From Bacteroidota bacterium (GTDB taxonomy: Bacteria; Bacteroidota; Bacteroidia; AKYH767-A; 2013-40CM-41-45): a stretch of 55,137 nt of DNA. The translations under genes and the position numbers were made by a program. The first letter of the stretch is position 1, and each line of letters opens with the position of its first letter. The notes beneath the pieces are model-generated. The model had not been told where the DNA came from, searched no databases, and was given only the letters and a program-made list of their open reading frames with translations. The DNA is taken from positions 1 through 55,137 of the forward strand of contig JAYTXY010000056.1 of assembly GCA_043742705.1 (NCBI GenBank), written 5' to 3'. Positions 1 to 53,779 of the stretch are shown here, in pieces.

Positions 1-324
1 ATCGGCAAAGAAGTAAGACGGTTTAAATTCAACGGAGAAGAAAAAGAGTACCTGATGGAATATGCTTTTGAGCCGGAGTTCTCCATTGTAAAAGCATGGA
101 AAGGTGATGCACATGGAAATTTAGTTTTCCGGTTGACGGCACGCAACTTCAATCCGCTCGTTGCTATGGCGGGAAAAACAACAATAGCTGAAGTGGAAGA
201 ACTTGTTGAGCCGGGCGAACTTGATCCGCAACAGATTCATGTTCCCGGAATTTATGTTCACCGGATTTTTAAAGGAGAAAACTTTGAGAAGCGGATTGAG
301 CAGAGAACGGTACGAAAAAAATAA
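1..324 (+). CDS. scoA: 3-oxoacid (succinyl-CoA:3-ketoacid) CoA-transferase subunit A, C-terminal part; the 5' end lies outside the window
   Basis: Frame 1 is open from nt 1. The tail AWKGDAHGNLVFRLTARNFNPLVAMAGKTTIAEVEELVEPGELDP is the conserved C-terminus of family I CoA-transferase alpha subunits. The beta subunit follows downstream. Confidence 0.9.
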   Translation: MGKEVRRFKFNGEEKEYLMEYAFEPEFSIVKAWKGDAHGNLVFRLTARNFNPLVAMAGKTTIAEVEELVEPGELDPQQIHVPGIYVHRIFKGENFEKRIEQRTVRKK

Positions 325-793
325 TTTGATAATTTGATGATGTGCTGATTTGATAATTTATTTTTACTATTTCAAACTTTTCTAAACTTAAAATTATGCA
401 AACTAACAAAGAAAACATTATCGTAAACCTTACTTTTGAATTTGCTCTTTCAGTGATTAAGTATACAGAAATATTAGAAGCAAAAAGAAAGTACAATGTA
501 TCCAATCAGTTGTTTCGTTCAGGGACATCCATTGGAGCTAACGTAAGAGAGGCTCAAAATGCAGAAAGTAAAGTCGACTTTATTCATAAATTAAAAATTG
601 CAGCTAAAGAAGCCGAAGAAACAGAATACTGGATCCTGCTATGTCAACAGTCCGAAAACTATCCCGAGCCAGGTCCATTACGCGATCAAATAGGTTCGAT
701 TCACAAGGTTCTTTCAAAAATTATCTCAAGCTCAAAAATTAAGAACTAAAGTATTCCATCACCAAATCAGCACATCATCAAATTACCAAATTA
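322..793. mobile_element. Candidate inverted-repeat-bounded single-gene cassette (cargo: four-helix-bundle gene) filling the scoA-scoB gap
   Basis: The left arm 322-354 (taatttgataatttgatgatgtgctgatttgat) is the reverse complement of 761-793 with 2 mismatches. The arms start at the scoA stop codon and end 1 nt before the scoB ATG. Confidence 0.5.
396..749 (+). CDS. Four-helix-bundle protein (23S rRNA intervening-sequence protein / S23p / Avd-like family)
   Basis: 117 aa with the family pattern QLFRSGTSIGANVREAQNAES..DFIHKLKIAAKEAEETEYWILLC. It sits alone between scoA and scoB and is bounded by a 33-nt inverted repeat. Confidence 0.85.
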   Translation: MQTNKENIIVNLTFEFALSVIKYTEILEAKRKYNVSNQLFRSGTSIGANVREAQNAESKVDFIHKLKIAAKEAEETEYWILLCQQSENYPEPGPLRDQIGSIHKVLSKIISSSKIKN

Positions 794-794
794 A

Positions 795-1454
795 ATGCTT
801 GACAAAAACGGAATCGCAAAAAGAATTGCAAAAGAAATTAAAGATGGATATTACGTAAACCTCGGAATTGGTATTCCTACGTTATGCGCGAATTATATTC
901 CTGCAGGAATGAACGTGGTGCTGCAATCGGAAAACGGAATTCTCGGCATGGGCGCTTTTCCGTACGAGGGAAATGAAGATCCTGATCTGATTAACGCAGG
1001 AAAACAAACGGTGACACTGCTGAATGGTTCATCTATTTTTGATTCTGCAATGAGTTTCGGAATGATCCGCTCACAGAAAGTGAACCTCACCATTTTAGGC
1101 GCGATGGAAGTAAGCGAAGATGGCGACATCGCCAACTGGAAAATTCCCGGGAAGATGGTGAAAGGTATGGGCGGAGCAATGGATTTGGTGGCTTCTGCAA
1201 AAAATATTATTGTTGCAATGCAGCATGTCAACAAAGCAGGAGAATCCAAGTTACTTCCGAAATGTGAGTTGCCTTTGACAGGAAAACGTTGTGTGAAAAG
1301 AATTGTAACCGAACTTGCCGTGGTGGATGTATTGCCGCAGGGAGGATTCAAATTAATTGAACGCGCTCCGGGAGTAAGTGTTGAAGAAATAAAAAAAGCG
1401 ACAGCAGGAAGACTGCTCGTTGAAGGCGATATTCCAGAAATGAAAATTGACTGA
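795..1454 (+). CDS. scoB: 3-oxoacid CoA-transferase subunit B
   Basis: 219 aa. Contains the catalytic-Glu motif [11 protein letters not shown] and GGAMDLV, typical of beta subunits. Confidence 0.93.
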
Positions 1455-1479
1455 CCTTTTTAAACTGAAGCATCTTCAC

Positions 1480-2202
1480 ATGACTACAATTACTAAACTT
1501 TCCATCATCATTCCGTGTTACAACGAAGAACGAACTGTTCATCTCATTCTTGACAAGGTTATCAAGGTTCAACTTAGAAATAACATTCAGAAAGAACTCA
1601 TCATTGTAAATGATTGTTCAAAAGACAGCACGAAAGAAACCATTGAAAATTATTTTCGAAATCATCCCGGTGTTGATTACAAACTTTTCAATCATGAAGT
1701 GAATAAAGGAAAAGGTGCTGCCATTCACACAGGAATAACAAAGGCAACGGGAGAATACCTTATCATACAGGATGCGGATCTGGAATACGATCCGAATGAA
1801 TATAATTTATTGCTGCAACCCATCCTTGATGGTTTTGCAGATGTTGTTTTCGGTTCACGATTCATGGGAGGAAATCCTCACCGCATTTTATTTTTCTGGC
1901 ATTCCATCGGTAACAAATTACTGACTACGCTGTCGAACATGCTCACCAACATGAACTTGACGGACATGGAGACCTGTTACAAACTTTTCAGAACCGACAT
2001 CATTCAGAAAATTGATCTCAAAGAAAAACGATTTGGTTTTGAACCGGAAGTCACTGCAAAAATTGCCCGCGTTCCCAAGGTTCGTGTTTACGAAGTTGGC
2101 ATTTCATATTACGGTCGTACATACGAAGAAGGAAAAAAGATCGGATGGAAAGATGGATTTAGGGCGATCTGGTGTATTTTGAAATACAATTTGTTTAGTT
2201 GA
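1480..2202 (+). CDS. Family 2 glycosyltransferase, polyprenol-phosphate sugar synthase-like (DPM1/ArnC/GtrB type)
   Basis: Motifs [19 protein letters not shown] and [11 protein letters not shown] (DxD). The ORF-track start at 1447 is TTG and overlaps scoB, so ATG at 1480 is preferred. Confidence 0.85.
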
Positions 2203-2240: not shown

Positions 2241-4109
2241 ATGACTGCATTAAAATCAAAATCTTTTTTAACAACCATCTTTCTTGCCCTGCTGATTGCC
2301 TTTTGCTTTTTCAAAAACCCGCGCCAGGAGAACAATAAATATTTTACCAACGATCTTGAATGGGATGTGTTCTCTTACTACATGTACCTTCCCTATACTT
2401 TTGTTTATCACGATATGGGAATGAAGGATCCGAAAATCGTGGAGAACATTTTCAAAAAATATAATTTTCCGGGAACCTATTACCAGGCGTATAAACTGGA
2501 AAATGGAAACTATACTCCAAATTATACGATGGGTTTTGCATTGCTCTGGTCGCCTTTCTTTTTCATCGGGCATACCTGGGCGAAAGCCGGCGGCTATGAT
2601 GTAGACGGCTGGTCCTTTCCCTATCAATTCAGCATTGCTGTCGGAGTATTGTTTTACATTCTCATCGGCTTATTCTTTCTTCGAAAAATATTGCTTCATT
2701 TTTTTTCGGAGAATCTTACTTCACTGGTTTTACTGTTGACCGTTCTCGGTACAAATTATTTGCACGAGGCATTCAACGATTACATGCAGCCACATGCGCA
2801 GATTTTTACGGGCTATGCCGTACTGATCTATTATACCATTCGCTGGCACCAGGAGCAGAAAAAAAAGTACATGATGATTGCAGGACTCGTCATGGGTTTT
2901 ATGATTCTCGCAAGACCCAGTGAAATTCTGTGCCTCTTCATTCCGCTTTTGTGGAATGTATACGATAAAGAATCATTTCAAAAAAAGATTCAGCTGGTTC
3001 GTGCAAATCTTTTTCAGTGTCTCATCCTGATCGGATTTGCTTTCATTCCGTTCATTCCCCAGATCCTGTATTGGAAACACGTTACAGGTGCCTGGTTGTT
3101 TTACAGTTATCAACGTTACGAAGGATTTGATTTTCTGGCTCCGCATATTTTTAATTGTCTCTTCAGCTTTAAGAAAAGCTTATTCATTTATACACCGATC
3201 ATCATATTTCCAATCATCGGAATTTTCCTGATGAAGAAATACAATAAGATGATCTTTCTTCCTTTCCTCCTTTACTTTCTCTCCAATTTTTATTTGCTGA
3301 CAAGCTGGGCTGCCTGGTGGAATGGCGGAAGTTATGGCATGCGGTATTTTGTAGAATCGTATCCGGTGATGGCAATTTCATTCGGATATGTGCTCACCGA
3401 TATTTGGAAAAGGAAATGGTTGCTGAAGTCAATTACTTCTGTGCTGTTGGTTTTATTTACAGCCTTGAATCTTTTTCAGACCTGGCAGTACATGCACTGG
3501 ATCATTCCGGAAGACCGGATGAACTGGGCGTATTACAAACAAATCTTTTTGAAAACAAAAGTGACGGATGATGACCGTAAACTTATGGAAGTACAACGTT
3601 CGTATGACTACACGGAAAGTTTTACTAATCCTGAAGAATATAATCGCCATACAGTGGTTTACCTGAGCTTCGACAATGTCAACACCTCAGATTACGATGA
3701 ATCAAAAAAGGACACCGCTCTTTTTCTTTCCGCTCCTTCTTCTTTTAAAATGACGGAGAACGATGAGTGGGGACCTAATTGCAAGATTCAATACGATCAC
3801 TTGGTTCCTTCCGATAAAGATCATGCATGGCTGAAACTCAGCGCCTGGTATTATTCCGATGCTGACATCAAAGACAATGAGACAAACTTTGTCATCAACA
3901 TGCCTCACCATAAGTATAACCTGAAGTACCGCGCATTTAATTTTTCTCAGTTCCCGTGGAAAAAAGGCGAGTGGAATAAAGTGGAGTTTAATTATATGAC
4001 TCCATTCCCGTATTCCGAAAAAGATCATTTTGAAATTTACATCTGGCATCGCGGCAAACAAACCATGTGGTTAGATAACATGCATGTAGAGGCTTACCTC
4101 AAAAAATAA
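2241..4109 (+). CDS. Large polytopic membrane protein, GT-C-like (ArnT/PMT-like) putative glycosyltransferase with a C-terminal soluble jelly-roll/CBM-like domain
   Basis: 622 aa. About 12 hydrophobic segments are followed by a soluble tail of roughly 190 aa. It is a paralog of 7728..9548: shared DVFSYYMYLPYTFVYHD / DVHWYYAYLPAQFIYHD and WWNGGSYGMRYFVESYP / WWYGGTYGQRSMIDSFP. The functional family is inferred from architecture only. Confidence 0.65.
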   Translation: MTALKSKSFLTTIFLALLIAFCFFKNPRQENNKYFTNDLEWDVFSYYMYLPYTFVYHDMGMKDPKIVENIFKKYNFPGTYYQAYKLENGNYTPNYTMGFALLWSPFFFIGHTWAKAGGYDVDGWSFPYQFSIAVGVLFYILIGLFFLRKILLHFFSENLTSLVLLLTVLGTNYLHEAFNDYMQPHAQIFTGYAVLIYYTIRWHQEQKKKYMMIAGLVMGFMILARPSEILCLFIPLLWNVYDKESFQKKIQLVRANLFQCLILIGFAFIPFIPQILYWKHVTGAWLFYSYQRYEGFDFLAPHIFNCLFSFKKSLFIYTPIIIFPIIGIFLMKKYNKMIFLPFLLYFLSNFYLLTSWAAWWNGGSYGMRYFVESYPVMAISFGYVLTDIWKRKWLLKSITSVLLVLFTALNLFQTWQYMHWIIPEDRMNWAYYKQIFLKTKVTDDDRKLMEVQRSYDYTESFTNPEEYNRHTVVYLSFDNVNTSDYDESKKDTALFLSAPSSFKMTENDEWGPNCKIQYDHLVPSDKDHAWLKLSAWYYSDADIKDNETNFVINMPHHKYNLKYRAFNFSQFPWKKGEWNKVEFNYMTPFPYSEKDHFEIYIWHRGKQTMWLDNMHVEAYLKK

Positions 4110-9566: not shown

Positions 9567-9932
9567 TCACCAGGGATTCTCAAGGTCTTCTCGGGTATAA
9601 ACATGATCACGGACGGTATAATACGAATTGCCTGATGTCTTTTTCAGCTGCAACGAATCCTTTTTAATAAACAACCTTGAGAGCAACGCGATTGGAAACA
9701 GGAAAACAAAAAACACCACGGAAAGAATAACTTTCGACATCACCGTTCCCATGACGTGGGAAAGTTTCATCCACAGCCAATGAATTTTTTCCGTCAGGTA
9801 GTTACTGAATAAACCAATTGAAGAAACAATCACAATCGCAGGAAGCAAGTAATGATTCTTTGTCACCCAATAGATGACAGCCAAACCGAGTACAATACTC
9901 AAGATGGTTTCTAACTGTTTCTCCCGTTTCAT
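9567..9932 (-). CDS. SxtJ-family small membrane protein
   Basis: 121 aa with 3-4 TM segments and a C-terminus ...REDLENPW. It lies directly downstream of a carbamoyltransferase and a DUF5989 mini-ORF, the arrangement known from sxtI-sxtJ-sxtK. Confidence 0.75.
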   Translation of the reverse strand: MKREKQLETILSIVLGLAVIYWVTKNHYLLPAIVIVSSIGLFSNYLTEKIHWLWMKLSHVMGTVMSKVILSVVFFVFLFPIALLSRLFIKKDSLQLKKTSGNSYYTVRDHVYTREDLENPW

Positions 9933-9938
9933 GCGTGA

Positions 9939-10088
9939 TTAAAAAAGTGTGTAAATAAACGGTGCCAGCGCAGATCCTCCGCCGATCACAATCAGGATGC
10001 CTAGCAAAAGCAATACGATGATGAGCGGAGCAAGCCAGAATTTTTTCCGGGCTCTTAGAAATTTCCAGAGGTCTTTTAAGAAATCCAT
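9939..10088 (-). CDS. DUF5989 (SxtK-like) small membrane protein, 49 aa; absent from the ORF track
   Basis: Manual translation of the minus strand gives MDFLKDLWKFLRARKKFWLAPLIIVLLLLGILIVIGGGSALAPFIYTLF*. ATG is at 10088 and TAA at 9939-9941, 6 nt upstream of the SxtJ start. Confidence 0.75.
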   Translation of the reverse strand: MDFLKDLWKFLRARKKFWLAPLIIVLLLLGILIVIGGGSALAPFIYTLF

Positions 10089-10092
10089 CTTC

Positions 10093-10125
10093 TACGAATT
10101 ACGAATCGGTTACGAATATACGAAT
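10093..10125. repeat. Four direct copies of tacgaat in the carbamoyltransferase-DUF5989 spacer
   Basis: tacgaat occurs at 10093, 10100, 10111 and 10119. The same heptamer builds the arms of the hairpin elements at 36987 and 49801. Confidence 0.8.
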
Positions 10126-10139
10126 ACACAACTATTTGA

Positions 10140-19819: not shown

Positions 19820-19826
19820 CTCTGTA

Positions 19827-39053: not shown

Positions 39054-39060
39054 GCAGAAA

Positions 39061-39646: not shown

Positions 39647-39696
39647 ATCTTGAGCCATTCCGTTCTTGAATTCACAAACCGTTTATTAAGAAAAGC

Positions 39697-41490: not shown

Positions 41491-41523
41491 GAGACGTTTT
41501 ACCTGTCTTCTAAAAATACATAA

Positions 41524-41622: not shown

Positions 41623-41635
41623 CGTCAGCACTTAA

Positions 41636-42772: not shown

Positions 42773-43982
42773 TGGCGATCATTTCCTGTAAAGCGAAAAC
42801 TCCCAGTTCTTTAGCCACCTTATGTATTTTATCAATCGCCTGTTCAATTTGTGCGATAGAGTGTGTAGCCATTAATGACATACGGATCAGTGATGAATCG
42901 CTTTTTACTGCAGGCGAAACAACAGGATTCACAAACACACCCTCTTCAAACAAACGGTTGGTAAATTTAAACGTGGTCATGTCATCACGAATGTAAATCG
43001 GGATGATTGGAGTCTCGGTTTTGCCAATGTCAAAGCCAAGGTTTTTTAAAGTCTCAGTGGCGTAACGCGTGTTTGCCCAAAGATGATCGAGACGATCCGG
43101 CTCACTTTGAATGATTTCAAGAGCAGCCAACGCAGCAGCTGCAGCTGACGGAGGAATGCTCGCGCTGAAAATCATCGAGCGTGCATTATGTTTGAGGTAA
43201 TTGATAATGTCTTTGTTACTTGCAACGAATCCGCCGAGTGATGCCAACGATTTGCTGAATGTGCTCATGATGAGATCAACCTCATTCGTCAATCCGAAAT
43301 GAGCAGCTGTCCCTTCACCATGTTTTCCGAGAACACCCAATGCATGCGCATCATCTACCATCAAAGCAGCACCATATTTATTGGCAAGCTTAACGATGGA
43401 AGGTAAATCAGCAATGTCACCTTCCATACTGAAGATTCCATCCACCACAATCATTCTTATCCTGTCATCATCAATTGAACGAAGTTGATTTTCAAGTTCG
43501 TTCATATCGTTGTGAGCAAATTTCAGAACTCTTGAAAAAGACAAACGGCTTCCTTCAATAATAGAAGCGTGGTCGAGTTCATCCAATAATAAAACTCCAT
43601 GACGACCGGTAAGCGTAGCTACAACACCTAAATTGGTTTGATAACCTGTGCTGAAAACCAACGCAGCTTCTTTGCCGACAAAGTCAGCCAGCCTTTCTTC
43701 CAACTCGATATGGAGCTTAGAGGTCCCGTTCAGGAAACGTGAGCCGGAGCAGCTGCTTCCATAACGTTCGAGAGCAATGCTCGCAGCTTCTTTCACCTTT
43801 GGGTGATTGGTTAAGCCCATGTAGCTGTTTGATCCGAACATCAGAACCCGCTTTCCCCCTATTGTAACTTCCGTATCGTGATTTTCCTCAATGGGCCTGA
43901 AGTAAGGATAAATACCTGCCTTCTTTAACTCGGCAGGTATTGTAAACTTCTTCATTTTCTGGTGAAGAGTAGTTGAAACCAT
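42753..43982 (-). CDS. PLP-dependent alpha-oxoamine synthase, serine palmitoyltransferase / cysteate-acyl transferase-like
   Basis: 409 aa. Contains YPYFRPIE, SNSYMGLTNHPKV, GSSCSGSRFLNGT (SPT-like rather than BioF/KBL-like), DDAHALG and the STFSKSLASLGG PLP-lysine motif. Confidence 0.8.
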   Translation of the reverse strand: MVSTTLHQKMKKFTIPAELKKAGIYPYFRPIEENHDTEVTIGGKRVLMFGSNSYMGLTNHPKVKEAASIALERYGSSCSGSRFLNGTSKLHIELEERLADFVGKEAALVFSTGYQTNLGVVATLTGRHGVLLLDELDHASIIEGSRLSFSRVLKFAHNDMNELENQLRSIDDDRIRMIVVDGIFSMEGDIADLPSIVKLANKYGAALMVDDAHALGVLGKHGEGTAAHFGLTNEVDLIMSTFSKSLASLGGFVASNKDIINYLKHNARSMIFSASIPPSAAAAALAALEIIQSEPDRLDHLWANTRYATETLKNLGFDIGKTETPIIPIYIRDDMTTFKFTNRLFEEGVFVNPVVSPAVKSDSSLIRMSLMATHSIAQIEQAIDKIHKVAKELGVFALQEMIANGTNHR

Positions 43983-44630
43983 TCTGTCTAATTTATGTTT
44001 TTAACCAGTTATTATCTAAATTCAATTAACCCTACTGCAAAGACAATCAAATCCTAAAACCTGACAAATAAATAACCCGCTGCCTTGTAAGGGCAAATTT
44101 TGGGTGCTCAAAATAAAGGATAAAAAAAGAAATGACCAAAGCAAATATCATGTGTGTTGATAACCAGTCGATTAGTTTGTAATCCATTATCATTTTAAGT
44201 CAGATAAACCTATCTGACTATTTAAGGGGATGAATATACAACGATTTCTTTGAACTCAAAATGTTCTTTAAGGCAACTGCTGCCTTTTCAACCCTTTCGT
44301 CAAAAATTCACGCAAAGAAATTCAATTTACAATGAATGTAAGATGATGGAAATCATCGAGCCACTTATAATGTAAAACCCGTTCAGGAAAGCTTTCTATC
44401 AATAAAGTATTTCCGGACTTTCGCCAAAGAGTTTCATGCTTTCGAGACGATGGCGGGAAACGAGAAAATTGTTTTTATTTCATAATATCTCAAAAAAGGA
44501 AACGTTATTTTGCAGCCGAAGTATAAGAACCTTAATTTTGAAGTAAAAACTGAAAGAATTACGATCAAATTAAGTTGACAAGACTCCGTTAAGATTGTAT
44601 CTTATAGAGAATTAGAAGATTAGCAAGGAC

Positions 44631-46121
44631 ATGAAAACTGCAAAAAGAAAACATACGTTTCTGAACACCATTTGTCTCGGTGTATGTTTACTCTTTTCTT
44701 TTATTTTGCCAGGCTCTTTTGCTTCAGGAAAAACTCCTGCTGATACTACTGCAATCATTAATTTTTATAATCCGGCAGGAAGTTTTTTATTCCAGCCTGA
44801 TGCTTCCATCTCTGTGAACGAAAGAGAAATGAGAGCCGGACTTCTTTACGATCTGGAGAATAAAAAAATAGTGTGGCAAAAAGAGATGAGCATGCCTTAC
44901 CCGATTGCATCACTTACAAAAATGATGGTTGCCTTGATTACCGTTGAAGATATTCACGCCGGAAAAGTCAACTGGACAGACAATGTTCACTGGACACGCG
45001 AAATCAGGATGGGAAGAGGAAAAAAGAAACGCACCGTTACTGAAAACGTAAATTATTCCCTACTCGATATTTTTAAAGCAGCCATGATTGCTTCCAATAA
45101 CGAAGCTGCAGAACAAATGGCGCGATATGTTGGCGGAGATGTTCAGTCGTTTGTTGATCGCATGAATACACGTGCAAGAGAAATAAACATGAACAGTACG
45201 TACTATGGAAATCCTACAGGACTCCCTGCCAGCGGAAAACTGTTCGACAATTCTGCTTCACCTACTGACTTGCTCATCCTCACTCTTGAAATGCTGAAGT
45301 ACGATGAGATTCTTCAGGTAACCGGAATGGGTTATGCAGACATCAACAACGGACGCAGCACCAGTGTGATCAGAAATCATAATCACCTTACTATTGATTA
45401 CAAAGGTGAAGTTGACGGAATGAAAACCGGTTACACGAAAAGAGCCGGGTTTTGTCTCGCTGCCACTTCCAACAAATGCGATCATCGGTTGATCAGCATT
45501 GTCCTTGGCTCCCGTTCTCCGAATCTCCGTAACGAAGTTGTAAAGGACATGATCAATGATTACTACAGTTCCATTGGTCTTGACAAATTAGGTCCGTATT
45601 GTGAGGCTCCTTCTTCCGTAAAATCTGTTTCGAGCATAACTCACGTTGTGAAGCACGGTGAAACGCTTGCTTCTGTTGCTTATAAATACAATTGCTCCGA
45701 AACAGATATTAAATCCTGGAACAAACTTCGTAAAGGAAGAATTGCTCCCGGACAAAAACTGACCATCGCGTCTTCTGCCAACGAGCAAGTTGCTGTTGTG
45801 AAGAGTAGTGAAGAAGATACGGAAGGAAGTGAGCAATTGGCATCCTCCGAAGAAAATCAATCAATCGATGCAACTGAAGAAACTGTTGACGTTCCAAAAG
45901 CTGTGACAACAGTATCGAAAGCAAAAGCAAAGTCTACGGTTAAGTCAGACAAATCAACTTCGAAGTACATTATTTACGTGGTGCAACCCGGCGACACGCT
46001 TTTCAGCATTGCCAAGCGTTATGACCTTGCTAACATCAACCAATTGAAAGCGGTGAACAAAATTTCCAAGGGCCATGTTTTGAAAGCCGGAGCGAAGATC
46101 AAGGTTCCTGTTAACAGCTGA
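44631..46121 (+). CDS. D-alanyl-D-alanine carboxypeptidase (S11, PBP5/6-like) with two C-terminal LysM domains
   Basis: Contains ASLTKMM (SxxK), ASNN (SxN) and KTGYT. Two LysM repeats are present (HVVKHGETLASVAYKY..., YVVQPGDTLFSIAKRY...). Confidence 0.88.
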   Translation: MKTAKRKHTFLNTICLGVCLLFSFILPGSFASGKTPADTTAIINFYNPAGSFLFQPDASISVNEREMRAGLLYDLENKKIVWQKEMSMPYPIASLTKMMVALITVEDIHAGKVNWTDNVHWTREIRMGRGKKKRTVTENVNYSLLDIFKAAMIASNNEAAEQMARYVGGDVQSFVDRMNTRAREINMNSTYYGNPTGLPASGKLFDNSASPTDLLILTLEMLKYDEILQVTGMGYADINNGRSTSVIRNHNHLTIDYKGEVDGMKTGYTKRAGFCLAATSNKCDHRLISIVLGSRSPNLRNEVVKDMINDYYSSIGLDKLGPYCEAPSSVKSVSSITHVVKHGETLASVAYKYNCSETDIKSWNKLRKGRIAPGQKLTIASSANEQVAVVKSSEEDTEGSEQLASSEENQSIDATEETVDVPKAVTTVSKAKAKSTVKSDKSTSKYIIYVVQPGDTLFSIAKRYDLANINQLKAVNKISKGHVLKAGAKIKVPVNS

Positions 46122-46194
46122 TTTTTTTCCGGGTTAATCATCACCTGTCATTCAGATTTTTCATTTAGTTTTACAACTCAAAACTATTCTTGTA

Positions 46195-46758
46195 ATGAAA
46201 AAACTGTCGATTGCATTTCTACTTCTTTCTGTTGTAACAATCCGCGTGAATGCACAAAAGCAACCCGCTGCTGTTGTTCAACTGCATATTGATTCCATCA
46301 CAAAGCTAATTACATATGAAGGCGTGACGGAAGTTGGCAACATAAAAGCAGATGTTCTTTACAAGCGGGCATTGAGTTGGTTCAACACTTTTTATAAAAA
46401 CCCGACAGAAGTCATTCGCGAAAACGATGAGTTGAAATTTAAGATTGTCGGAAAACCGCGTTTTAAAATCTATAATACTCCGGATAAAGATGGTTCGAAA
46501 TCAGATGCCGGACTGATTCAATACACAATTACCGTTGCTGCAAAAGATGGTCGCTTCAAATACGAGATTACGGAGTTTAACCTGAAACAAACATCCTATT
46601 TTCCCTGCGAGCGATGGATGGATGTGAAGACACAAACGTCACTTCCGGCTTATACCGGTTATCTCCAACAGCTCAACCAGTACACACTGGAACTTATCAG
46701 AGATCTGAAAAAAGCTGTAATGAATGAGAAGCCTGTAAAGGATAAAGACAGTTGGTAA
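46195..46758 (+). CDS. DUF4468-like secreted protein
   Basis: 187 aa with a signal peptide. The pattern ...KRALSWFNTFYKNPTEVIRENDELKFKIVGKPRF... resembles DUF4468. The family name is recalled from memory, not verified. Confidence 0.6.
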   Translation: MKKLSIAFLLLSVVTIRVNAQKQPAAVVQLHIDSITKLITYEGVTEVGNIKADVLYKRALSWFNTFYKNPTEVIRENDELKFKIVGKPRFKIYNTPDKDGSKSDAGLIQYTITVAAKDGRFKYEITEFNLKQTSYFPCERWMDVKTQTSLPAYTGYLQQLNQYTLELIRDLKKAVMNEKPVKDKDSW

Positions 46759-46779
46759 AAAAGCATCTAAAACTGCAAA

Positions 46780-46808
46780 GTCTGTGACAAAATCACAGGC
46801 TTTTTTTA
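46780..46808 (+). terminator. Rho-independent terminator after the DUF4468-like gene
   Basis: gtctgtga caaaa tcacaggc is an 8-bp stem with one G-U pair, followed by ttttttta. Confidence 0.75.
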
Positions 46809-46838
46809 TTTGATTACTTTTACAAAAAAATTCTTCCC

Positions 46839-47732
46839 ATGGATGCTTCTTCTACCTTAAGTTTTTCGCCGGTGATTATCGGTGTGATCGTGTTGTTCTT
46901 TCTTGGTGTCCGAATTGTTCGTCCTACTCACCGCGGATTAATCGAACGACTTGGAAAATACCATCACTTTGCGGTTCCTGGATTTCACTGGATTATTCCT
47001 TTTATCGATCGCATGTACCAGATTAATACAACAGAACAAATGATCAATGCCGAATCGCAGGAGATCATCACGTTCGACAACCTGAACGCGCGTGTGGATG
47101 CACAGGTTTATTTCAAAATTAAAATTGACGAAGACAGTGTTAAGAATTCACAATACAACGTCAACAACATTTCTTACCAGATCGTGAATCTTGCGCGAAC
47201 CACGTTAAGAAATATCATTGGTACGATGACGCTTAAATCTGCAAACAGCGAGCGTGGAAAAATCAACAAGAGTTTGTACGCAACCTTGCTGGAAGAAACG
47301 CATGATTGGGGAATTGAAATTGTACGGACAGAGTTGAAAGAAATTGATCCTCCAAAAGATGTTCAGGAAACGATGAATAAAATCGTGAAAGCGGAAAATG
47401 AAAAAATGGCTGCCATCGATTTTGCAACTGCCGTTGAAACCCGTGCTGATGGCGAGAAACGTGCAGAGATAAAAAAAGCGGAAGGAATCAAGATTGCAAA
47501 TATTTTACGTGCCGAAGGTGAAGCGCAGGCAATTGCATTGGTAAATGAAGCTGCAGAAAAATATTTTGTCGGTAATGCACAAACACTTCGCAAACTGGAA
47601 GCGTTGGAAAAAGCGCTTTCAAACAATTCAAAGATTATTGTTCCGTCCGACAAAGAACTGATTAATGTGATTGGTGAAATGGCGGGAGTTCTTCCGATGC
47701 CTCGAAGAAAAGAAGATGGCGGACAATCGTAA
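46839..47732 (+). CDS. SPFH/Band 7 (stomatin/prohibitin-like) protein
   Basis: An N-terminal TM segment, an SPFH core (VDAQVYFKI..., WGIEIVRTELKEIDPP) and a coiled-coil tail rich in A/E/K. Confidence 0.88.
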   Translation: MDASSTLSFSPVIIGVIVLFFLGVRIVRPTHRGLIERLGKYHHFAVPGFHWIIPFIDRMYQINTTEQMINAESQEIITFDNLNARVDAQVYFKIKIDEDSVKNSQYNVNNISYQIVNLARTTLRNIIGTMTLKSANSERGKINKSLYATLLEETHDWGIEIVRTELKEIDPPKDVQETMNKIVKAENEKMAAIDFATAVETRADGEKRAEIKKAEGIKIANILRAEGEAQAIALVNEAAEKYFVGNAQTLRKLEALEKALSNNSKIIVPSDKELINVIGEMAGVLPMPRRKEDGGQS

Positions 47733-47757
47733 GCATTAAAAAATGAATTCTAAAAGC

Positions 47758-47788
47758 GCAGGAAAAACTTCCTGCACTTTTTTATTTT
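47758..47788 (+). terminator. Rho-independent terminator after the SPFH gene, overlapping the ispD stop
   Basis: gcaggaa aaac ttcctgc followed by acttttttatttt. Confidence 0.75.
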
Positions 47789-48462
47789 CGGGGAAAATAT
47801 TTTTGGAGAATTAATTCTCCCGTGATCATGTCGAATGGATAAGTGATTTTAATATTCTCACGTTCTCCTTCAACAAGGTGTATTTTTTTTCCGGAATGCT
47901 CCACTACACTTGCATCATCTGTAAAAGTTGTTTGATACGTTAGTTCATACGCAGCCTTCAGAATTTCCGAATCGAAACATTGCGGAGTTTGAACAATTAC
48001 AAATGAAGAACGGTCTGCTATTGAATTCTTATCTCCTTCTGTTTTTCGGATGGAATCATTCAATGAAATTGCGGGAACAGCGCTTCCGTTTTTCTCAGCT
48101 TCTGTAAAGCATTTATTGATTAAAGCAGGACTTGCAAAAGGTCTGACTCCGTCATGAATTGCAACAATGGATTTTTCTTTAACAAAAGCTAATCCATTCT
48201 TCACAGAATGAAAACGCGTTTCTCCACCTTCAACAACAGTATGAGCAATTGAAAAGGAATATTTTTCACACAACGCTTTCCATCCATCGATTTCATTCTT
48301 CGGAAGAACAACAATGATCTCGATGGAAGCATCCGCTTCAGCAAAGCGCTGAGTGGTATGCATCAGGATTGGCTTTCCACCAAGCAAAACAAACTGCTTA
48401 GGAATGCCGGCATTCATCCTGTTTCCGCTTCCACCTGCAACGATGATGACACTTTGTTCCAT
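47782..48462 (-). CDS. ispD: 2-C-methyl-D-erythritol 4-phosphate cytidylyltransferase
   Basis: 226 aa. Contains IIVAGGSGNRM and IHDGVRPF motifs. Confidence 0.9.
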   Translation of the reverse strand: MEQSVIIVAGGSGNRMNAGIPKQFVLLGGKPILMHTTQRFAEADASIEIIVVLPKNEIDGWKALCEKYSFSIAHTVVEGGETRFHSVKNGLAFVKEKSIVAIHDGVRPFASPALINKCFTEAEKNGSAVPAISLNDSIRKTEGDKNSIADRSSFVIVQTPQCFDSEILKAAYELTYQTTFTDDASVVEHSGKKIHLVEGERENIKITYPFDMITGELILQKYFPRK

Positions 48463-48509
48463 TCCGGATAGTAATTTGAATCTTGACTTTATTCTCTTTT
48501 AACTTAAAT

Positions 48510-49751
48510 TTATTCGTCTGCTCTCACAGCTTGCAACGAAATCTTTTTCTCCACCAGCTTCTTTGCAGGATACCATGCTGCAAGCAATCCAATGATGGAC
48601 ACTGTGATGAAGACATAGATAAAATCAGTTGCCTGCATCTGTACAGGATACGCATCGATCACAAACGAACCGCTTCCGCTTAATTTTATCAACCCGAATT
48701 GTTGCTGAAGGAAACAAACCAATCCTCCTGTTACCAAACCGATGACTGCTCCGATAAATGTGATGAACAATCCTTCAGCGAGAAATATTTTTCGAAGCAA
48801 TTGTGTGTCTGCTCCCATGCTGTGAAGGATGGCAATGTCTTTTTGCTTTTCGATGATGAGCATGGTAAGCGAAGCGATGACATTAAAAGTAGCGATGAGT
48901 AAAATGAAGGCAAGAATAAGAAACACCGCCCATTTTTCACTCTTCATAATTTTATAAAGGATGGCATGCTGTTCATACCGGTCTTTTACATTGAACTTTT
49001 CTCCGAGTGTCTTTTTTATTTGCTGCTTTACATCCTGCACATCGGCATCCGGTTGCAATGCAATTTCAAGCGCTGACAATTGTGAGTCATATTCCAGTAT
49101 CTCTCTCGCAAAACGTAACGGGACAATCACATACTTTGTATCAAACTCCTGCTGCACGGCAAACGTTCCCGATGGTGTAATAAACCTGCGGTTAAATGCT
49201 TCTTCAGGATTTGACAACGAAGACGCGTTTCTTTTCGGTGCATAAATTTCAAGTTGGCTCATGAAATCACCGATGTTCATTTTCAGATTGTATGCAATCG
49301 CTCCACCAACAATTGCATAATCCGTATCGCCACGTTGAAGTAAAAAGCTTCCATCAGAAATCATGGAATCGAGCCCGCTTGTTTTTTGAAAATCATCGCT
49401 CACTCCCTTCACCGTAACAATGTATTGTTTGTCTCGGTATTTCACGAGTGCGTTTTCTTCCAACACTTCAGTTATCGCCTTCACCCCTTTCATTGACTTC
49501 AGTGAGGAAAGCGGAATTGTATTGGCATCAAATGTTTTTCCTTCATTCAGCGTAATTTTAATTCCGGGATCGAATGAGTTGTAAAGCGAAACGACCAGTT
49601 TTTCAAACCCATTGAAGACAGATAATACGATGATGAGTGCACCGGTGCCAATCATCACACCCAACACTGAGATCAGCGAAATGATGTTGATCGCACGCTG
49701 CGACTTCTTCGAAAAAAAATACCGCCTGGCAATGAAAAGGTGAAACGTCAT
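48510..49751 (-). CDS. FtsX/LolE-like ABC transporter permease
   Basis: 413 aa. One N-terminal TM segment, a large periplasmic loop, and a C-terminal FtsX 3-TM bundle (IASLTMLIIEKQKDIAILHSMGA). Confidence 0.85.
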   Translation of the reverse strand: MTFHLFIARRYFFSKKSQRAINIISLISVLGVMIGTGALIIVLSVFNGFEKLVVSLYNSFDPGIKITLNEGKTFDANTIPLSSLKSMKGVKAITEVLEENALVKYRDKQYIVTVKGVSDDFQKTSGLDSMISDGSFLLQRGDTDYAIVGGAIAYNLKMNIGDFMSQLEIYAPKRNASSLSNPEEAFNRRFITPSGTFAVQQEFDTKYVIVPLRFAREILEYDSQLSALEIALQPDADVQDVKQQIKKTLGEKFNVKDRYEQHAILYKIMKSEKWAVFLILAFILLIATFNVIASLTMLIIEKQKDIAILHSMGADTQLLRKIFLAEGLFITFIGAVIGLVTGGLVCFLQQQFGLIKLSGSGSFVIDAYPVQMQATDFIYVFITVSIIGLLAAWYPAKKLVEKKISLQAVRADE

Positions 49752-49797
49752 GAATGAATCTGAATTATTCGGAACGAATGTACGAATTGAATTTTCA

Positions 49798-49876
49798 CTC
49801 TACGAATTACGAATATATACTAATATACAAATCAGGTGCATTCGCAAATTCAAAACTGATTCACAATTCGCAAACC
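49798..49876. repeat. tacgaat-unit hairpin element, copy B (degenerate right arm)
   Basis: tctacgaattacgaat-atatactaatatac-aaatcaggtgcattcgcaaattc aligns with copy A over about 60 nt. The arms tacgaattacgaat (49801-49814) and attcacaattcgca (49859-49872) match 11/14. Confidence 0.75.
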
Positions 49877-49955
49877 GGATATCAAGAATCAAATTGAGAC
49901 ACAACCGAATGTCCGCTAACCTTTTCTATCCTTGAAAAAATTTAAAGTGCCTGAA

Positions 49956-50444
49956 TCAATACATCAATTGCATCATGTGGACATCAATGAACTTTCCAAA
50001 CTTGAATCCCACTTCTTTCATTACACCGATGTGACGGTAACCAAATTTTTCATGCAAATGAATACTGGCTTCATTTCCCTGCGCAATCCGTGAAATAACC
50101 GTATGGTTCTTTACTTTTTTTCCTTCGAGCGTTACCATTTCCAGCAGCTTTGATCCAATGCCTTGCTCACGAAAATCCTTGTGAACATATACTGACACTT
50201 CAACCGTTGTATCATAAGCACAACGGTCGCTCCACGGACTCAACGATGACCAGCCAATTACCTGTTTGTTCTCCACGGCAACAAACACAGGATGATTTTT
50301 TTTATGTTTTCTAAACCACTCCAACTGCTTTTCAAACGTTCTCAGATCTGTATCAAATGTTGCAGTCGTGTTGATCACAGCATCGTTGTATATATCGAGA
50401 ATGGCTTGCTGATCGGAATCGGTGGAGGGACGAATGTTAACCAT
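49956..50444 (-). CDS. GNAT N-acetyltransferase, phosphinothricin/methionine-sulfoximine acetyltransferase-like
   Basis: 162 aa. Contains IRPSTDSDQQAILDIYNDAVINTTATFD and REQGIGSKLL (the acetyl-CoA loop). Confidence 0.8.
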   Translation of the reverse strand: MVNIRPSTDSDQQAILDIYNDAVINTTATFDTDLRTFEKQLEWFRKHKKNHPVFVAVENKQVIGWSSLSPWSDRCAYDTTVEVSVYVHKDFREQGIGSKLLEMVTLEGKKVKNHTVISRIAQGNEASIHLHEKFGYRHIGVMKEVGFKFGKFIDVHMMQLMY

Positions 50445-50517
50445 TGAAACAATTGTTTGAATGCATATGTTAATTTAACAGTTGAATGTTTTGTAACGTC
50501 AATAAGGTGATCTGTAT

Positions 50518-50525
50518 TATATTTG
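50518..50525 (+). promoter_or_regulatory. Candidate -7 promoter box for the DUF885 gene
   Basis: TATATTTG matches TAnnTTTG, 53 nt upstream of the ATG. A TTG at 50491 is a possible -33 element. Confidence 0.4.
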
Positions 50526-50578
50526 CAATGTCACATTCGAATCAAAAGTAAAAACTTTCACTCACAATTTTTATCTGC

Positions 50579-52423
50579 ATGAAAAAAAGTAATTTATTTC
50601 TCGCTGCTATTTCAGTAACAGCAATGGTTGCCTGTCATTCTAATAAAACCCCGGGGCAAAAAAATTTCTCTGCGGAAGAAATTGCGTTGGAATCTGATCG
50701 TGTAAATGTTTTTTTTGACAGCACGTATGACGAAGCGGTAAACCGGAATCCTGAACGGCAAACATACCTGGGAATTAAAAAGGATTACGATTCATGGACG
50801 GATCGTTCTGATGAGTGGGCAGGAAAAGAAAATGAGATCACAAAAAAGGAACTTGAGCAATTGCGTAAGAGTTTCGATTTTGACAAACTTGACCAACAAA
50901 CAAAATTGAGTTACCGTTATTTTGAATACAATGCTCAGCAGGAACTCGATAATTTTAAATGGCGTTTTCACAATTACCCGGTTAACCAGATGGATGGAAT
51001 TCAATCCGGGCTTCCCGCTTTCCTCATTAACATGCATCGCGTTGACACAATTACAGACGCGCTTGCTTACATCGCTCGCCTTAACAAAGTAGGGCAGGTT
51101 TTCGAACAGGTGTTAGTTGGTTTAAAAATGCGCGACAGCATGAACATCATTCCCCCGAAGTTTGTTTTCCCGATGGTACAAAATGATTGTAAGAATGTAA
51201 TCATGGGTCAACCGTTTGATAACTCCTCTCAAAAAAGTCCGTTGTTTGATGATTTTATTTCGAAAGTCAACGACTTGAAAAATGTGGATGGAGCAACGAA
51301 GAGCAGGTTGATACAGGATGCAAAGAGTGCTTTAGTTAACGTGGTGAAACCAGCATATGAAAAACTTTCCGCTTTCCTCCGTGAAGAAGAGAAAAAATCA
51401 ACAACCGATGACGGAGCATGGAAATTTCCCAATGGTGACAAATTTTATGCGGCAGCGTTGAAGGTTACCACTACTACTGATATGACTCCTGATGAAATTT
51501 TTGAAACCGGAGAAAGGGAAGTGAAACGCATTCATGATGACATGAAGGCAATCATGAAACAGGTGAACTGGAAGAATGATAACCTGCATGAATTTTTCGA
51601 GTTCATGCGTACTGACAAACAATTTTATTTTCCCAATACTCCGGAAGGAAAAAAAGCATACAAGGACAAAGCAACTGCTATCATCGATACGATGCGCGCA
51701 AAGCTTGATCTTTTGTTTGTTACAAAACCGAAAGCGGATATCCTTGTGAAAGCCGTTGAACCCTTCCGTGAAAAATCTGCGGGCGGAGCATTTTACGAAG
51801 ACCCTTCTGAAGATGGAAAACGTCCGGGGACTTATTACATCAACCTGTACAACATGGACGATCAGCCGATTTATCAGATGGAATCACTCGCTCATCACGA
51901 AGGAATTCCCGGTCATCACATGCAGATTGCCATTGCACAGGAATTGAAAAACATTCCGAAGTTTCGTAAACATGGAGGCAACGTAGCGTACGTAGAAGGA
52001 TGGGCGCTGTATTCAGAACTTATTCCGAAAGAAATCGGTTTGTACAAAGATTCGTATTCTGATTTCGGTCGACTTGCCAATGAAGTTTTTCGCGCAGCAA
52101 GATTGGTGGTAGATGTCGGCATTCATTATAAGAAGTGGACGCGTCAGCAGGCGCTCGATTATTTTCTCACGAACACTCCGAATCCTGAGGGTGACAGCAG
52201 GAAAGAAATTGACCGTTATACAGTATGGCCTTCACAGGCTACCGGTTATAAAATCGGGATGCTTAAAATTCTTGAGTTGCGCGAGAAAGCAAAAAGAGAT
52301 CTCGGTGAAAAATTCGACCTGCGTGAATTTCATGATGTAATCCTCACCAATGGTTCGCTGCCATTAAATCTGCTTTCTGAAAATGTAAATAGCTGGATTG
52401 AGAAAAAGAAAAGAGGAAGTTGA
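50579..52423 (+). CDS. DUF885 family lipoprotein (putative metallopeptidase-like)
   Basis: Lipobox (MVACHS), HEGIPGHHMQ and YVEGWALY motifs, and a DUF885-typical length of 614 aa. Confidence 0.85.
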   Translation: MKKSNLFLAAISVTAMVACHSNKTPGQKNFSAEEIALESDRVNVFFDSTYDEAVNRNPERQTYLGIKKDYDSWTDRSDEWAGKENEITKKELEQLRKSFDFDKLDQQTKLSYRYFEYNAQQELDNFKWRFHNYPVNQMDGIQSGLPAFLINMHRVDTITDALAYIARLNKVGQVFEQVLVGLKMRDSMNIIPPKFVFPMVQNDCKNVIMGQPFDNSSQKSPLFDDFISKVNDLKNVDGATKSRLIQDAKSALVNVVKPAYEKLSAFLREEEKKSTTDDGAWKFPNGDKFYAAALKVTTTTDMTPDEIFETGEREVKRIHDDMKAIMKQVNWKNDNLHEFFEFMRTDKQFYFPNTPEGKKAYKDKATAIIDTMRAKLDLLFVTKPKADILVKAVEPFREKSAGGAFYEDPSEDGKRPGTYYINLYNMDDQPIYQMESLAHHEGIPGHHMQIAIAQELKNIPKFRKHGGNVAYVEGWALYSELIPKEIGLYKDSYSDFGRLANEVFRAARLVVDVGIHYKKWTRQQALDYFLTNTPNPEGDSRKEIDRYTVWPSQATGYKIGMLKILELREKAKRDLGEKFDLREFHDVILTNGSLPLNLLSENVNSWIEKKKRGS

Positions 52424-52441
52424 AAGTAGTATAAAAGATTG

Positions 52442-52495
52442 TTTATTGGTTCACTAGTTCATTGGTGGGAATACAAATGAACTAATGAACTAAAT
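52442..52495. repeat. Hairpin with tagttcattgg-type arms between the convergent DUF885 gene and pgk (likely a bidirectional terminator)
   Basis: tggttcactagttcattgg pairs with caaatgaactaatgaacta (about 16/19). The loop is tgggaata. Confidence 0.65.
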
Positions 52496-52497
52496 TA

Positions 52498-53709
52498 CTA
52501 CTCAACAATCGCTTTTACTCCGGGCAAAACTTTCCCTTCGAAATATTCCAGCAATGCTCCTCCACCGGTGGAAACATAACTTACTTTATCCGCCAATCCA
52601 AACTTGCTGATGGCAGCGGCAGAATCTCCTCCTCCTATTAGTGAGTAAGATCCTTTTGATGTTGCTTCCGCAATGGCTTCAGCCATTTTACGTGTTCCGT
52701 TTTCAAATTTTTTCATTTCAAAAACGCCCATCGGTCCGTTCCACAAAATAGTTTTCGAATTTTTTATCACATCACAAAATTCAGCAACGGCTTTTGGACC
52801 AAGATCCAATCCCATCCAGCCTGCTGGAATATTGTTGTTTTCTGCGACTGATGTGTTCGCTTCATTATCAAATTTATCTCCGATAATAGAATCAAACGGA
52901 AGAATAATTTCGCAATTTTTCTCCTCTGCTTTTTCTAACAGTTGTTTTGCGAGACCGAGTTTATCTTCCTCCACCAATGAATTTCCGACCTTCCCTCCCA
53001 ATGCTTTAAAGAAAGTGTAAGCCATTCCTCCGCCAATGATGATGTTGTCGGCTTTATCCAAAAGGTTTTCGATGATCAATATTTTATCAGACACTTTTGC
53101 TCCGCCCATTACAGCCGTGAACGGATGTTGTGCATTGTAAATAACCTTGTCGGCATTTGTCAATTCACTTGCCATGAGATAACCGAAGAACTTTTTTTCA
53201 GGAAAAAATTTTGCAATCACTGCCGTTGAAGCATGTGCACGATGAGCTGTTCCGAATGCATCATTCACATAAACGTCTCCATGAGCTGAAAGCTTTTTCG
53301 CAAACCCTTCGTCTCCTTTTTCTTCCTCTTTGTAAAAGCGGAGATTTTCCAATAACAAAACTTCTCCGGCTTTTAAATTGTGTGATAAATTAAATGCTTC
53401 GTCACTGATGCAGTCATTCGCAAACTTTACTTCGCGCCCAAGCAACTCTGCTGTTTTTTTAACGGTATGATTCAATGTGAATTTTTGAAAATCAACGGTA
53501 CCGTCTTCTTTCAATTTCTTCAACGGCCTTCCGAGATGGCTCATTAGTACCACACTTCCACCATCTTTTAGAATTTTGTTGATCGTTGGTAATGCACCGC
53601 GAATGCGGCTATCGTCTGTAACGTTGAATTGCTTATCAAGCGGAACGTTGAAGTCAACACGAACCAGGGCTCTGTGTCCCGAAAAATTATATTGATCGAT
53701 GGTTTTCAT
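52498..53709 (-). CDS. pgk: Phosphoglycerate kinase
   Basis: Contains [20 protein letters not shown] and [10 protein letters not shown] motifs. Confidence 0.95.
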
Positions 53710-53779
53710 TAGTTCATTGGTTTATTAGTTCATTGGTTCATTGGTAATCTTCACCAACGAACTAATGAACTATTGAACT
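53709..53779. repeat. Hairpin of the same tagttcattgg family between the aspS stop and the pgk start
   Basis: ttagttcattggtttattagttcattggttcattggt pairs with caccaacgaactaatgaactattgaact (about 17/20 in the core). The loop is aatctt. It abuts the pgk ATG. Confidence 0.65.

Follow-up and report, generated by a model that had tools for sequence, protein, structure and literature searches.

Why are so many gaps between the genes of one bacterial contig filled by hairpins whose arms are themselves built from short tandem repeats, and why do some of these hairpins hold a small gene? The contig (JAYTXY010000056.1 of assembly GCA_043742705.1) belongs to an uncultured Bacteroidota genome and was analysed whole, as a window of 55,137 bp with about 40% G+C. 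An earlier, sequence-only reading of it had likened the gene-bearing hairpins to the intervening sequences (IVSs) of 23S rRNA, which are bounded by a stem and may carry an open reading frame (ORF). Our analysis leads us to regard it as probable that IVS-type cassettes settle in operon junctions and there decay to hairpins, and that the window holds two complete cassettes together with relatives that have no cargo. The complete cassettes lie between scoA and scoB (cassette A) and between a peptidase gene and gpsA (cassette E).

Two gene-bearing cassettes and their counterparts in relatives

Inverted arms were located in the window by a repeat search and a read-out of all intergenic gaps. The fold of each site was compared with 100 dinucleotide shuffles, the arms being joined by a short linker where a gene intervenes. 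The two cassettes have the following parts.

322-357, + strand: 5' arm of cassette A, TAATTTGA TAATTTGA TGATGTGC TGATTTGA TAAT, four 8-nt units
396-749, + strand: cargo gene of cassette A, encoding a 117-aa four-helix-bundle (4HB) protein (PF05635, E 1.5e-21; TIGR02436, E 1.6e-25)
758-793, + strand: 3' arm of cassette A, C/A-rich and G-poor, ending 1 nt before the scoB ATG at 795
24365-24390, + strand: 5' arm of cassette E, CACGCAAAG GCGCAAAG TGCGCAAAG, three units of 8-9 nt; fold z -5.7
24400-24777, + strand: cargo gene of cassette E, encoding a 125-aa GxxExxY protein (PF13366/TIGR04256, PD-(D/E)XK fold, E 8.5e-39)
24778-24796, + strand: 3' arm of cassette E, CTCTTTGCGCCTTTGCGCG, ending 14 nt before the gpsA ATG at 24811

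The arms of cassette A, each 36 nt long, are 92% complementary and when joined fold with a z of -10.3; the first TAA of the 5' arm is the stop codon of scoA. The protein encoded between them matches PDB entry 2rld, which has five chains (E 1.3e-21); an exact-match look-up found no record identical to it. In cassette E the 5' arm begins 7 nt past the stop codon of the peptidase gene (24355-24357). We place the start of gpsA at ATG 24811 and not at TTG 24790, tblastn matches beginning at about residue 7 of the TTG-extended ORF. An alignment of nine homologs of the GxxExxY protein (45-70% identity) leaves G24, E27 and Y30 invariant together with D67, E77 and K79, and the last three would, as expected, fit an active PD-(D/E)XK nuclease. 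Searches with the two proteins returned at least 7993 homologs of the 4HB protein and at least about 8000 of the GxxExxY protein; a scan of viral contigs for the latter gave two loci only.

The closest gpsA relatives of the window, at 73-85% identity, come from freshwater and soil metagenome-assembled genomes (MAGs) and include Ca. Pollutiaquabacter aromativorans. For the gpsA junction we took the gene with 10 kb on either side from 80 species and mapped synteny across the loci; the scoA/scoB junction was compared among ScoB homologs and metagenome loci (compared loci carry L numbers). The peptidase/gpsA gap measures 0-15 nt in 12 relatives, and it is loaded with a GxxExxY gene in the window and in L005, L006, L007, L013, L023, L027 and L173. 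In L004 both cgcaaag arms are intact around a GxxExxY gene whose 5' half has been deleted, and in L003 there is solely an empty hairpin of 97 nt with ctctgcg/cgcagag units. The 5' arm of cassette E recurs in L004, L005, L007 and L173. The scoA/scoB junction is loaded in the window, L163, L087, L103, L112, L115 and L124, the cargo ORF of L163 having been reduced to 94 aa. L164, which belongs to one MAG with L004, has an empty hairpin of 112 nt with 4HB-style units, and L168-L170 have plain gaps of 29-72 nt. The loaded hairpins are therefore real insertions: in relatives both junctions of the window are found tight or empty, loaded, decayed, or occupied by an empty hairpin. Our comparisons show that cassettes persist in lineages and that cargo genes have decayed by frameshift or internal deletion while their arms persisted, with empty hairpins left behind. 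The creation of hairpins by the decay of cassettes is better supported than the colonisation of existing hairpins, because the ancestral junctions are 0-15 nt long and have no hairpin. In a neighbour-joining tree of the 4HB proteins, groups from orthologous junctions cluster in part and copies from the scoB junction scatter; with a protein of 117 aa the scatter could come from repeated insertion or from poor resolution.

Some loci have departed further from the simple arrangement. In L166, scoB lies behind truB and not scoA, and a solo array of the 3'-arm type (gcacatt, catcaaatt, atcaaatc) precedes its ATG at 1445-1500; the 3' arm appears to have moved with the downstream scoB during rearrangement. 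In L176 (1095-1763) the GxxExxY gene is accompanied by two arms of the 5' type and three or four of the 3' type. The same segment of about 25 nt, ending in a stop codon, precedes every additional 3' arm, and the arrangement looks like nested or serial insertion of cassettes with loss of the older cargo. At the peptidase/gpsA junction of L027 (8016-9998), an ORF of about 350 aa, a candidate transposase as far as its sequence goes, separates the GxxExxY gene from a hairpin of cacagag units. L005 (1307-1367) and L006 (2346-2406) have a near-perfect hairpin of reversed polarity, CTTTGCG x3 ... CGCAAAG x3 with a 3-nt loop, at the convergent junction just downstream of gpsA, and its units are those of the upstream GxxExxY cassette. 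Modules of about 80 nt, built as [atcagcg x3]-gggaa...ttccc-[cgcagat x3], occur in L044 (11000-11660) and L171 (1830-2520); they are imperfect hairpins with regular A.A mismatches.

Arms, orientation and motifs across metagenomes

We retrieved 80 metagenome PF05635 loci, with an alignment of 35 homologs, and could test 78 of them. The 120 nt upstream of each gene were aligned with the reverse complement of the 120 nt downstream, and arms were called when the alignment beat every shuffle by a margin. Significant inverted arms flank 55 of the 78 PF05635 genes; of 110 other genes from these contigs, 2 have them. The arms at PF05635 genes have a median length of 34 nt, are 86% complementary and have a period of 7-8 in most cases. 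At the 55 loci the left arms contain 21% G and 3.8% C, and the right arms mirror this composition. All three frames contain stop codons in 33 of the 55 left arms, and 25 of the 55 right arms are free of them in every frame. The neighbouring genes point the same way as the PF05635 gene almost without exception (52/53 upstream, 45/49 downstream). On the left, the arm overlaps the upstream stop codon or begins at it; on the right, it typically ends 0-15 nt before the next ATG. The fit is mostly within 15 nt on either side.

These data show the order of the cassette to be a G/T-rich 5' arm of three or four tandem 7-8-nt units, a small gene and, as the reverse complement of the 5' arm, a C/A-rich 3' arm. 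They also show that the cassette is co-directional with its hosts in a formerly tight operon junction, with the 5' arm at or near the upstream stop codon and often supplying it. The arm motif, to judge from unit counts, is shown to be specific to the cargo family: about three RAT[TG][TAC]G units occur per flank at 4HB genes and zero C[AG]C[ATC][AG]AG units, with the reverse at GxxExxY genes. The units at 4HB genes are of RATTTGA, AATGTGC and GATTAGC types, and a divergent subfamily has units of the GACAGA type. Five further GxxExxY loci have three 8-nt units per arm and conserved termini, TCTCGCA(A/G)AG...CT(T/C)TGCGAGA.

The association was also recovered blind. Among 763 genes of 260 aa or less, 49 had strong flanking inverted repeats, and family models assigned 40 of the 49 to 4HB or GxxExxY. 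The remainder included one divergent PF05635 gene that the models had missed, in the leu operon of L123 and with GACAACAGAC/GACAGAA arms; most of the others were host genes between neighbouring modules. Nearly all junctions of that leu operon (L123, 1-4100) are occupied: a cassette of the GACAGA type at 1027-1380 precedes leuC, a second at 2980-3333 with AATGTGCC-type arms separates leuC from leuD, and an empty hairpin at 3974-4070 follows leuD.

An IVS-like cassette, as the sequence-only reading had proposed, is borne out by arms that are general for PF05635 genes and recur at GxxExxY genes, and by an anatomy that matches the Coxiella IVS (PMC4990558). The presence/absence polymorphism that it had led one to expect is seen at both junctions, and the link that it drew between empty and loaded hairpins gains substance from L164, L003 and L004. 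It had also placed both cargo families among the proteins of rRNA IVSs; this is correct for PF05635, the family of the Coxiella S23p protein (PMC4990558), but could not be confirmed for GxxExxY.

Hairpins without cargo in the window and beyond

Many gaps in the window contain an inverted repeat in which each arm repeats a unit of 7-14 nt two to four times in tandem. Besides cassettes A and E, we distinguish nine sites, given here with their fold z (where two values are given, + and - strand).

19602-19640 / 19790-19820, unstranded: site D, inverted arms of gattgcg units found by the repeat search; z -5.4
32549-32581 / 32593-32625, unstranded: site F, empty hairpin of aattgcggat units, arms of 33 nt, 88% complementary; z -6.0
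36987-37064, unstranded: site G, empty hairpin of tacgaat units with a 42-nt loop, upstream of ileS (arms 36987-37017 / 37034-37064); z -4.1
49795-49885, unstranded: site H, degenerate second copy of G with a decayed 3' arm; z -1.3/-2.2
52442-52493, unstranded: site I, empty hairpin of ttcattgg / ccaatgaa units at the convergent DUF885/pgk junction; z -5.0
53705-53745 / 53753-53779, unstranded: site J, arms of an empty hairpin with units as in I; z -7.9
18631-18713, unstranded: site C, weak hairpin or array pair of aatgaaaattgaag x2 / attcaat-type units, hairpin-scan score 29; z -0.4/-2.7
10101-10125, unstranded: site K, solo direct array of tacgaat x4, of the G/H left-arm type and with no inverted partner; z -0.3
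16010-16616, - strand: site B, resident 134-aa gene (16130-16534) between weak aaaagtt-unit modules, not a cassette; z -2.7/-1.8

The sequence-only reading had counted at least eleven gaps with tandem-unit hairpins, and roughly seven of the eleven are solid. At A, D, E, F, G, I and J the complementarity of the arms exceeds that of the shuffled sequences (z -4 to -12), as had been supposed; B, C and H are weak, and one site is only a direct array. Several different units are present, as that reading had it, but the unit does not differ at every locus, since families are common to several loci and genomes (tacgaat at G, H and K, ttcattgg at I and J, gattgcg at D and F). That reading had overlooked two arrays, the direct-only one of tacgaat units at 10101-10125 and one of gatgtgc type at 16075-16128. 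H is 82% identical to G over arms and loop, and at least one family of empty hairpins, that of G and H, is dispersed. J is 77% identical to I and occupies the gap from the aspS stop codon to the pgk start; hairpin I has arms of reversed polarity (52446-52466 / 52473-52493, 21 nt, 86%). Hairpin F lies between a dksA/traR-like gene and lspA and begins at the lspA start codon. The arms of D bracket a 150-nt divergent intergenic region, each forming a C/A-rich array upstream of one divergent start. Site C, with an exact 14-nt unit in two copies, lies between a phosphoglucose-isomerase-like SIS-domain gene and a lipoyl ligase gene.

Of the three small genes put forward as cargo, the PF05635 gene at 396-749 and the GxxExxY gene at 24400-24777 stand and the third falls. 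We reject the 134-aa ORF of site B as cargo because it is conserved beside the same lipoyl-ligase/aminotransferase neighbours in seven relatives (47-83% identity, no consistent arms); it had no match in Pfam, NCBIfam, PADLOC or PDB. The modules around it comprise aaaagtt-type units at 16019-16050 and 16540-16612 and the gatgtgc-type array. Between I and J lies pgk (52498-53709), which we likewise considered as a large cargo and rejected: its role is a housekeeping one, and host genes between neighbouring modules give the same signal.

The hairpins are not well explained as intrinsic terminators. A terminator scan of 31000-50999, which flags ordinary hairpins, flagged none of F, G and H, and on inspection A, E and J have no T-run and their arms abut start codons. 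A and T predominate in the arms, which lead straight into start codons in A, E, F and J. Classical G+C-rich hairpins with a T-run do occur in the window, at 46777-46803, 47758-47775, 41519-41545 and 31721-31746. The Bacteroidetes -7 promoter consensus, which we take to be TAnnTTTG, is missed by one base in the TAATTTG arm units. An Rfam scan of the whole window (E <= 1) found no rRNA, and the hairpins gave only chance matches of microRNA or sRNA type.

In relatives, a scan of 809 intergenic gaps found 82 hairpins, and the tandem-unit ones among them (period 7-8) come mainly from the clade of the window and from contigs that bear 4HB genes. L132 and L150 each have three empty hairpins and one loaded cassette of like arm type within about 6 kb. 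In most cases these hairpins separate genes of the same orientation, come within a few nt of the stop and start codons and have the G-rich arm in front. The more distant Bacteroidota that were sampled (Carboxylicivirga and others) have mostly ordinary hairpins and a few tandem-unit loci, such as L074. The dksA-like/lspA junction has a hairpin or array in all eight relatives examined, with differing units, and at the SIS-domain-gene/lipoyl-ligase junction relatives carry arrays or hairpins of other units. Different units at orthologous junctions indicate that the architecture is kept while the sequence turns over.

The remaining genes of the window are ordinary housekeeping genes by family searches (scoAB, gpsA, ileS-lspA, pgk, aspS and others), and a few further features deserve record. 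The listed ORF at 18717-19709 is probably over-extended: its homologs align from about residue 4 of an ATG start at 19597, so that the gattgcg array falls in the 5' leader, outside the coding sequence. A small ORF on the - strand was apparently left uncalled in the 207-nt gap at 9933-10139. It would start near 10098 and encode a hydrophobic product of about 50 aa, with the tacgaat array immediately upstream of it and an SxtJ-like gene (9567-9932) downstream. For a 129-aa ORF at 29886-30275 the sole hint of identity is a very weak NCBIfam hit, below threshold, to the Bfi1 immunity protein family (E 0.0028; 17.6 bits, cut-off 100). A second family of hairpin repeats, gtcat(t/g)caggagg ... (g)attcctcctgaatgac, has 24-nt arms, loops of 26-40 nt and no tandem units; its two copies lie in - strand intergenic gaps at 31757-31844 and 39576-39647, the first adjoining the terminator at 31721-31746.

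Origin of the hairpins and comparison with known systems

If the cassettes are of the IVS type, each would be transcribed by read-through from the host operon, and its arms would pair in the transcript to form a duplex of about 25-45 bp that brings the upstream stop codon next to the downstream start. By analogy with rRNA IVSs, RNase III would cut this duplex, for which the stem length of the arms should be adequate, freeing the cargo RNA and leaving both host cistrons usable; since the cistrons would stay usable, the insertion would be nearly harmless and could be retained. The stop-rich 5' arm would close the upstream ORF and the G-poor 3' arm would serve as an unstructured leader for the next gene. 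The cargo-specific arms suggest that each cargo protein recognises its own, and it may bind them and take part in spread or retention. The 4HB cargo would do so as a pentamer that binds nucleic acid and is related to the accessory protein Avd from diversity-generating retroelements, and the GxxExxY cargo as a nuclease with an intact D-E-K motif. A wider proposal, which we offer only tentatively, is that IVS-type cassettes form a self-contained mobile class for any highly transcribed junction that tolerates pairing, be it in an operon or at the tip of an rRNA helix. Each cargo would recognise its own tandem-octamer arms and drive their copying or retention, the relic hairpins would be the main intercistronic RNA elements of these Bacteroidota, and the 23S IVSs would be the visible tip of the class.

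Several observations weigh against the reading as IVS-type cassettes. All three arm mismatches of cassette A are A.C on the sense strand, and at the PF05635 loci sense-strand G.U mismatches number 51 against 61 A.C: there is no G.U excess and no signal of selection at the RNA level. Because a divergent promoter region separates the arms of site D, the two should not occur together in either mRNA. RNase III has no need of a specific sequence, and the conservation of arm termini speaks for recognition by sequence. L013 and L023 have the whole hairpin upstream of the GxxExxY gene, and the gene of Carboxylicivirga (L044) and of L171 is flanked by complete, directly oriented hairpin modules; enclosure of the gene by the arms is thus not obligatory. 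We found no direct repeats (target-site duplications) at the outer arm boundaries of the 55 loci, and no mobility mechanism, transposase or conserved target motif at the PF05635 loci. Some arrays at orthologous junctions, in L007 and L036, are not complementary at all, and arrays may have a function of their own. Pairing may matter at the level of DNA instead of RNA.

An alternative that we consider unlikely is a mobile system at the DNA level, similar to the repetitive extragenic palindromes (REPs), their inverted pairs (REPINs) and the REP-associated transposases (RAYTs). Hairpin modules would replicate as single-stranded DNA hairpins or cruciforms, nicked by the GxxExxY protein and bound by the 4HB protein, and the RNA stem would be incidental. 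The layout is that of a RAYT flanked by inverted REPs with REPINs dispersed elsewhere (PMC3116915, PMC3337134). Such a system would accommodate the cargo-specific motifs with their conserved GxxExxY termini, the invariant D67, E77 and K79, the dispersal of the G/H family with its loop conserved, the three empty hairpins of the loaded cassette's type in L132 and L150, the lack of a G.U bias, and site D, which cannot function as an RNA hairpin. It fits poorly with 4HB proteins, which have no known catalytic activity, and with many diverse cargo genes that have differing arms in place of one master gene per repeat family. Co-orientation in 52 of 53 cases and the stop/start geometry would be unexpected of an element that acts purely on DNA, target-site duplications or a conserved target motif were not seen at the PF05635 loci, and the empty hairpins of the window use units unlike both of its cargo arm types. 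The hairpins could instead be host elements, the C/A-rich array acting as a translation leader and the hairpin coupling translation or stabilising mRNA in bacteria that have no Shine-Dalgarno sequences, with the small genes having merely accumulated there. We judge this very unlikely, although arrays abut start codons, a hairpin is present at the dksA-like/lspA junction in all eight relatives in spite of unrelated sequences, the non-complementary arrays of L007 and L036 keep the polarity of mRNA (purine/G-rich after the stop, C/A-rich before the ATG), and each arm of site D is the C/A-rich leader of one divergent gene. In addition, published TAACTGA direct repeats lie 1 nt upstream of start codons and have been proposed as sites for a translational regulator (PMC4679880). 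Yet the host can do without the hairpin, as most relatives have junctions of 0-15 nt and no hairpin at peptidase/gpsA, and gaps at scoA/scoB that are short and plain. The arms arrive with the cargo and are specific to it, the more distant Bacteroidota have mostly ordinary hairpins with a few of tandem-unit type (L074, for example), and the decaying cargo and duplicated or nested arms of L004, L163 and L176 resemble the turnover of an element.

A neutral origin, in which AT-rich DNA grows quasi-palindromes by replication slippage and template switching around genes that are enclosed by coincidence, is highly improbable and as the sole explanation is strongly disfavoured. The number and order of units do vary between relatives and between the arms of one element (L163 and L087, for example), heptamer copy number differs among Coxiella strains (PMC4990558), and sites B, C and H are barely above their shuffles. 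Slippage does not account for enrichment at two gene families (55/78 against 2/110), for cargo-specific motifs with termini conserved across distant genomes, or for strict orientation and polarity, and the tight ancestral junctions leave no intergenic DNA from which to grow. IVS-type cassettes that settle in operon junctions and decay there are the best-supported explanation. What appears to be new is their presence in operons, the two cargo-specific families of arms and the trail of relic hairpins; the kind of element itself is known from rRNA.

The origin, mobility and function of bacterial rRNA IVSs and of their conserved ORF have been open questions since the early 1990s (PMC4990558). If the IVS type exists by the thousands in the operon junctions of Bacteroidota, these questions become testable on a natural series of insertion, decay and empty states and in cultivable Flavobacteria. 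Two very large families of 'hypothetical' proteins, each with at least about 8000 homologs, would gain a concrete context, a class of hairpins otherwise annotated as terminators or noise would be explained, and a route would be given by which a gene enters an operon without breaking it. Our literature search, which covered few subscription journals and may have missed an earlier description, found none of stem-bounded PF05635 or GxxExxY cassettes outside rRNA. One genome paper, on Flavobacterium columnare, has in its tables, with no comment, a 4HB gene between gmk and nadD at about 35 nt from each (PMC5524665, Table 5).

Terminal inverted repeats, an intergenic position and the existence of loaded (autonomous) and empty (non-autonomous) forms are shared with miniature inverted-repeat transposable elements and other DNA transposons. 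Unlike these, the cassettes have tandem-unit arms, exact placement and orientation between stop and start codons and, at 55 loci, no transposase or target-site duplication that we could find. Integron cassettes with their attC sites also combine small promoter-less genes with imperfect palindromes whose structure is kept while the sequence varies, and empty integron cassettes exist; the cassettes described here have no integrase and are not arrayed at a single site, the gene stands between the two halves of a palindrome that in integrons lies at one end, and copies are dispersed in housekeeping operons. The solo arrays resemble the TAACTGA heptamers of Beggiatoaceae, Cyanobacteria and some Bacteroidetes, which form one inverted set against 169 direct sets and enclose no gene (MacGregor 2015; PMC4679880). 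Both are oriented tandem 7-nt units in two to six or more copies, lie near start codons, contain forward stop codons and are missing at the junctions of relatives, but the heptamers have a single unit sequence and many unit families occur here. REP/REPIN-RAYT systems of Pseudomonas and E. coli are similar in that extragenic palindromes lie in or at the ends of operons, inverted pairs are dispersed, and a small gene is flanked by inverted repeats. Such systems have many near-identical copies of one REP per genome; the 55 kb covered here hold G/H (82%), I/J (77%) and D/F as unit families, and L132 and L150 have three similar empty hairpins in 6 kb. REP/REPIN-RAYT systems differ in that the cargo here is PF05635 or PF13366 only and not an HUH/Y1 transposase of the IS200/IS605 type, and in that the arms are internally tandem-repetitive, with many arm sequences per genome, thousands of cargo variants and strict co-orientation.

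ORF-bearing IVSs of 23S rRNA are known from Coxiella burnetii (helix 45), Leptospira, Xanthomonas and Brucella. That of Coxiella is a 428-nt 'selfish' element with terminal inverted repeats and a 28-bp stem; GACAGAT heptamers stand in tandem in its 5' arm, two or three depending on the strain, its loop contains a decaying S23p (PF05635) ORF, and RNase III cuts it in mid-stem (PMC4990558). The operon cassettes differ from it in their host, which is a protein-coding junction such as scoA/scoB or peptidase/gpsA and not the tip of an rRNA helix, in arms that abut stop and start codons, in a second cargo family, GxxExxY, that has its own arms, and in the abundance of cargo-less hairpins. RNase III cutting is known by experiment for the IVS and for the cassettes would follow by analogy. 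An rRNA IVS is co-transcribed with its host gene, is sporadic in distribution, has a decaying ORF and is regarded as selfish (PMC4990558). With it the operon cassettes share the long terminal stem, the tandem units of the 5' arm and a PF05635 ORF of about 120 aa in the loop, and the GACAACAGAC/GACAGAA arms of the cassette in L123 resemble the GACAGAT heptamers of the Coxiella IVS.

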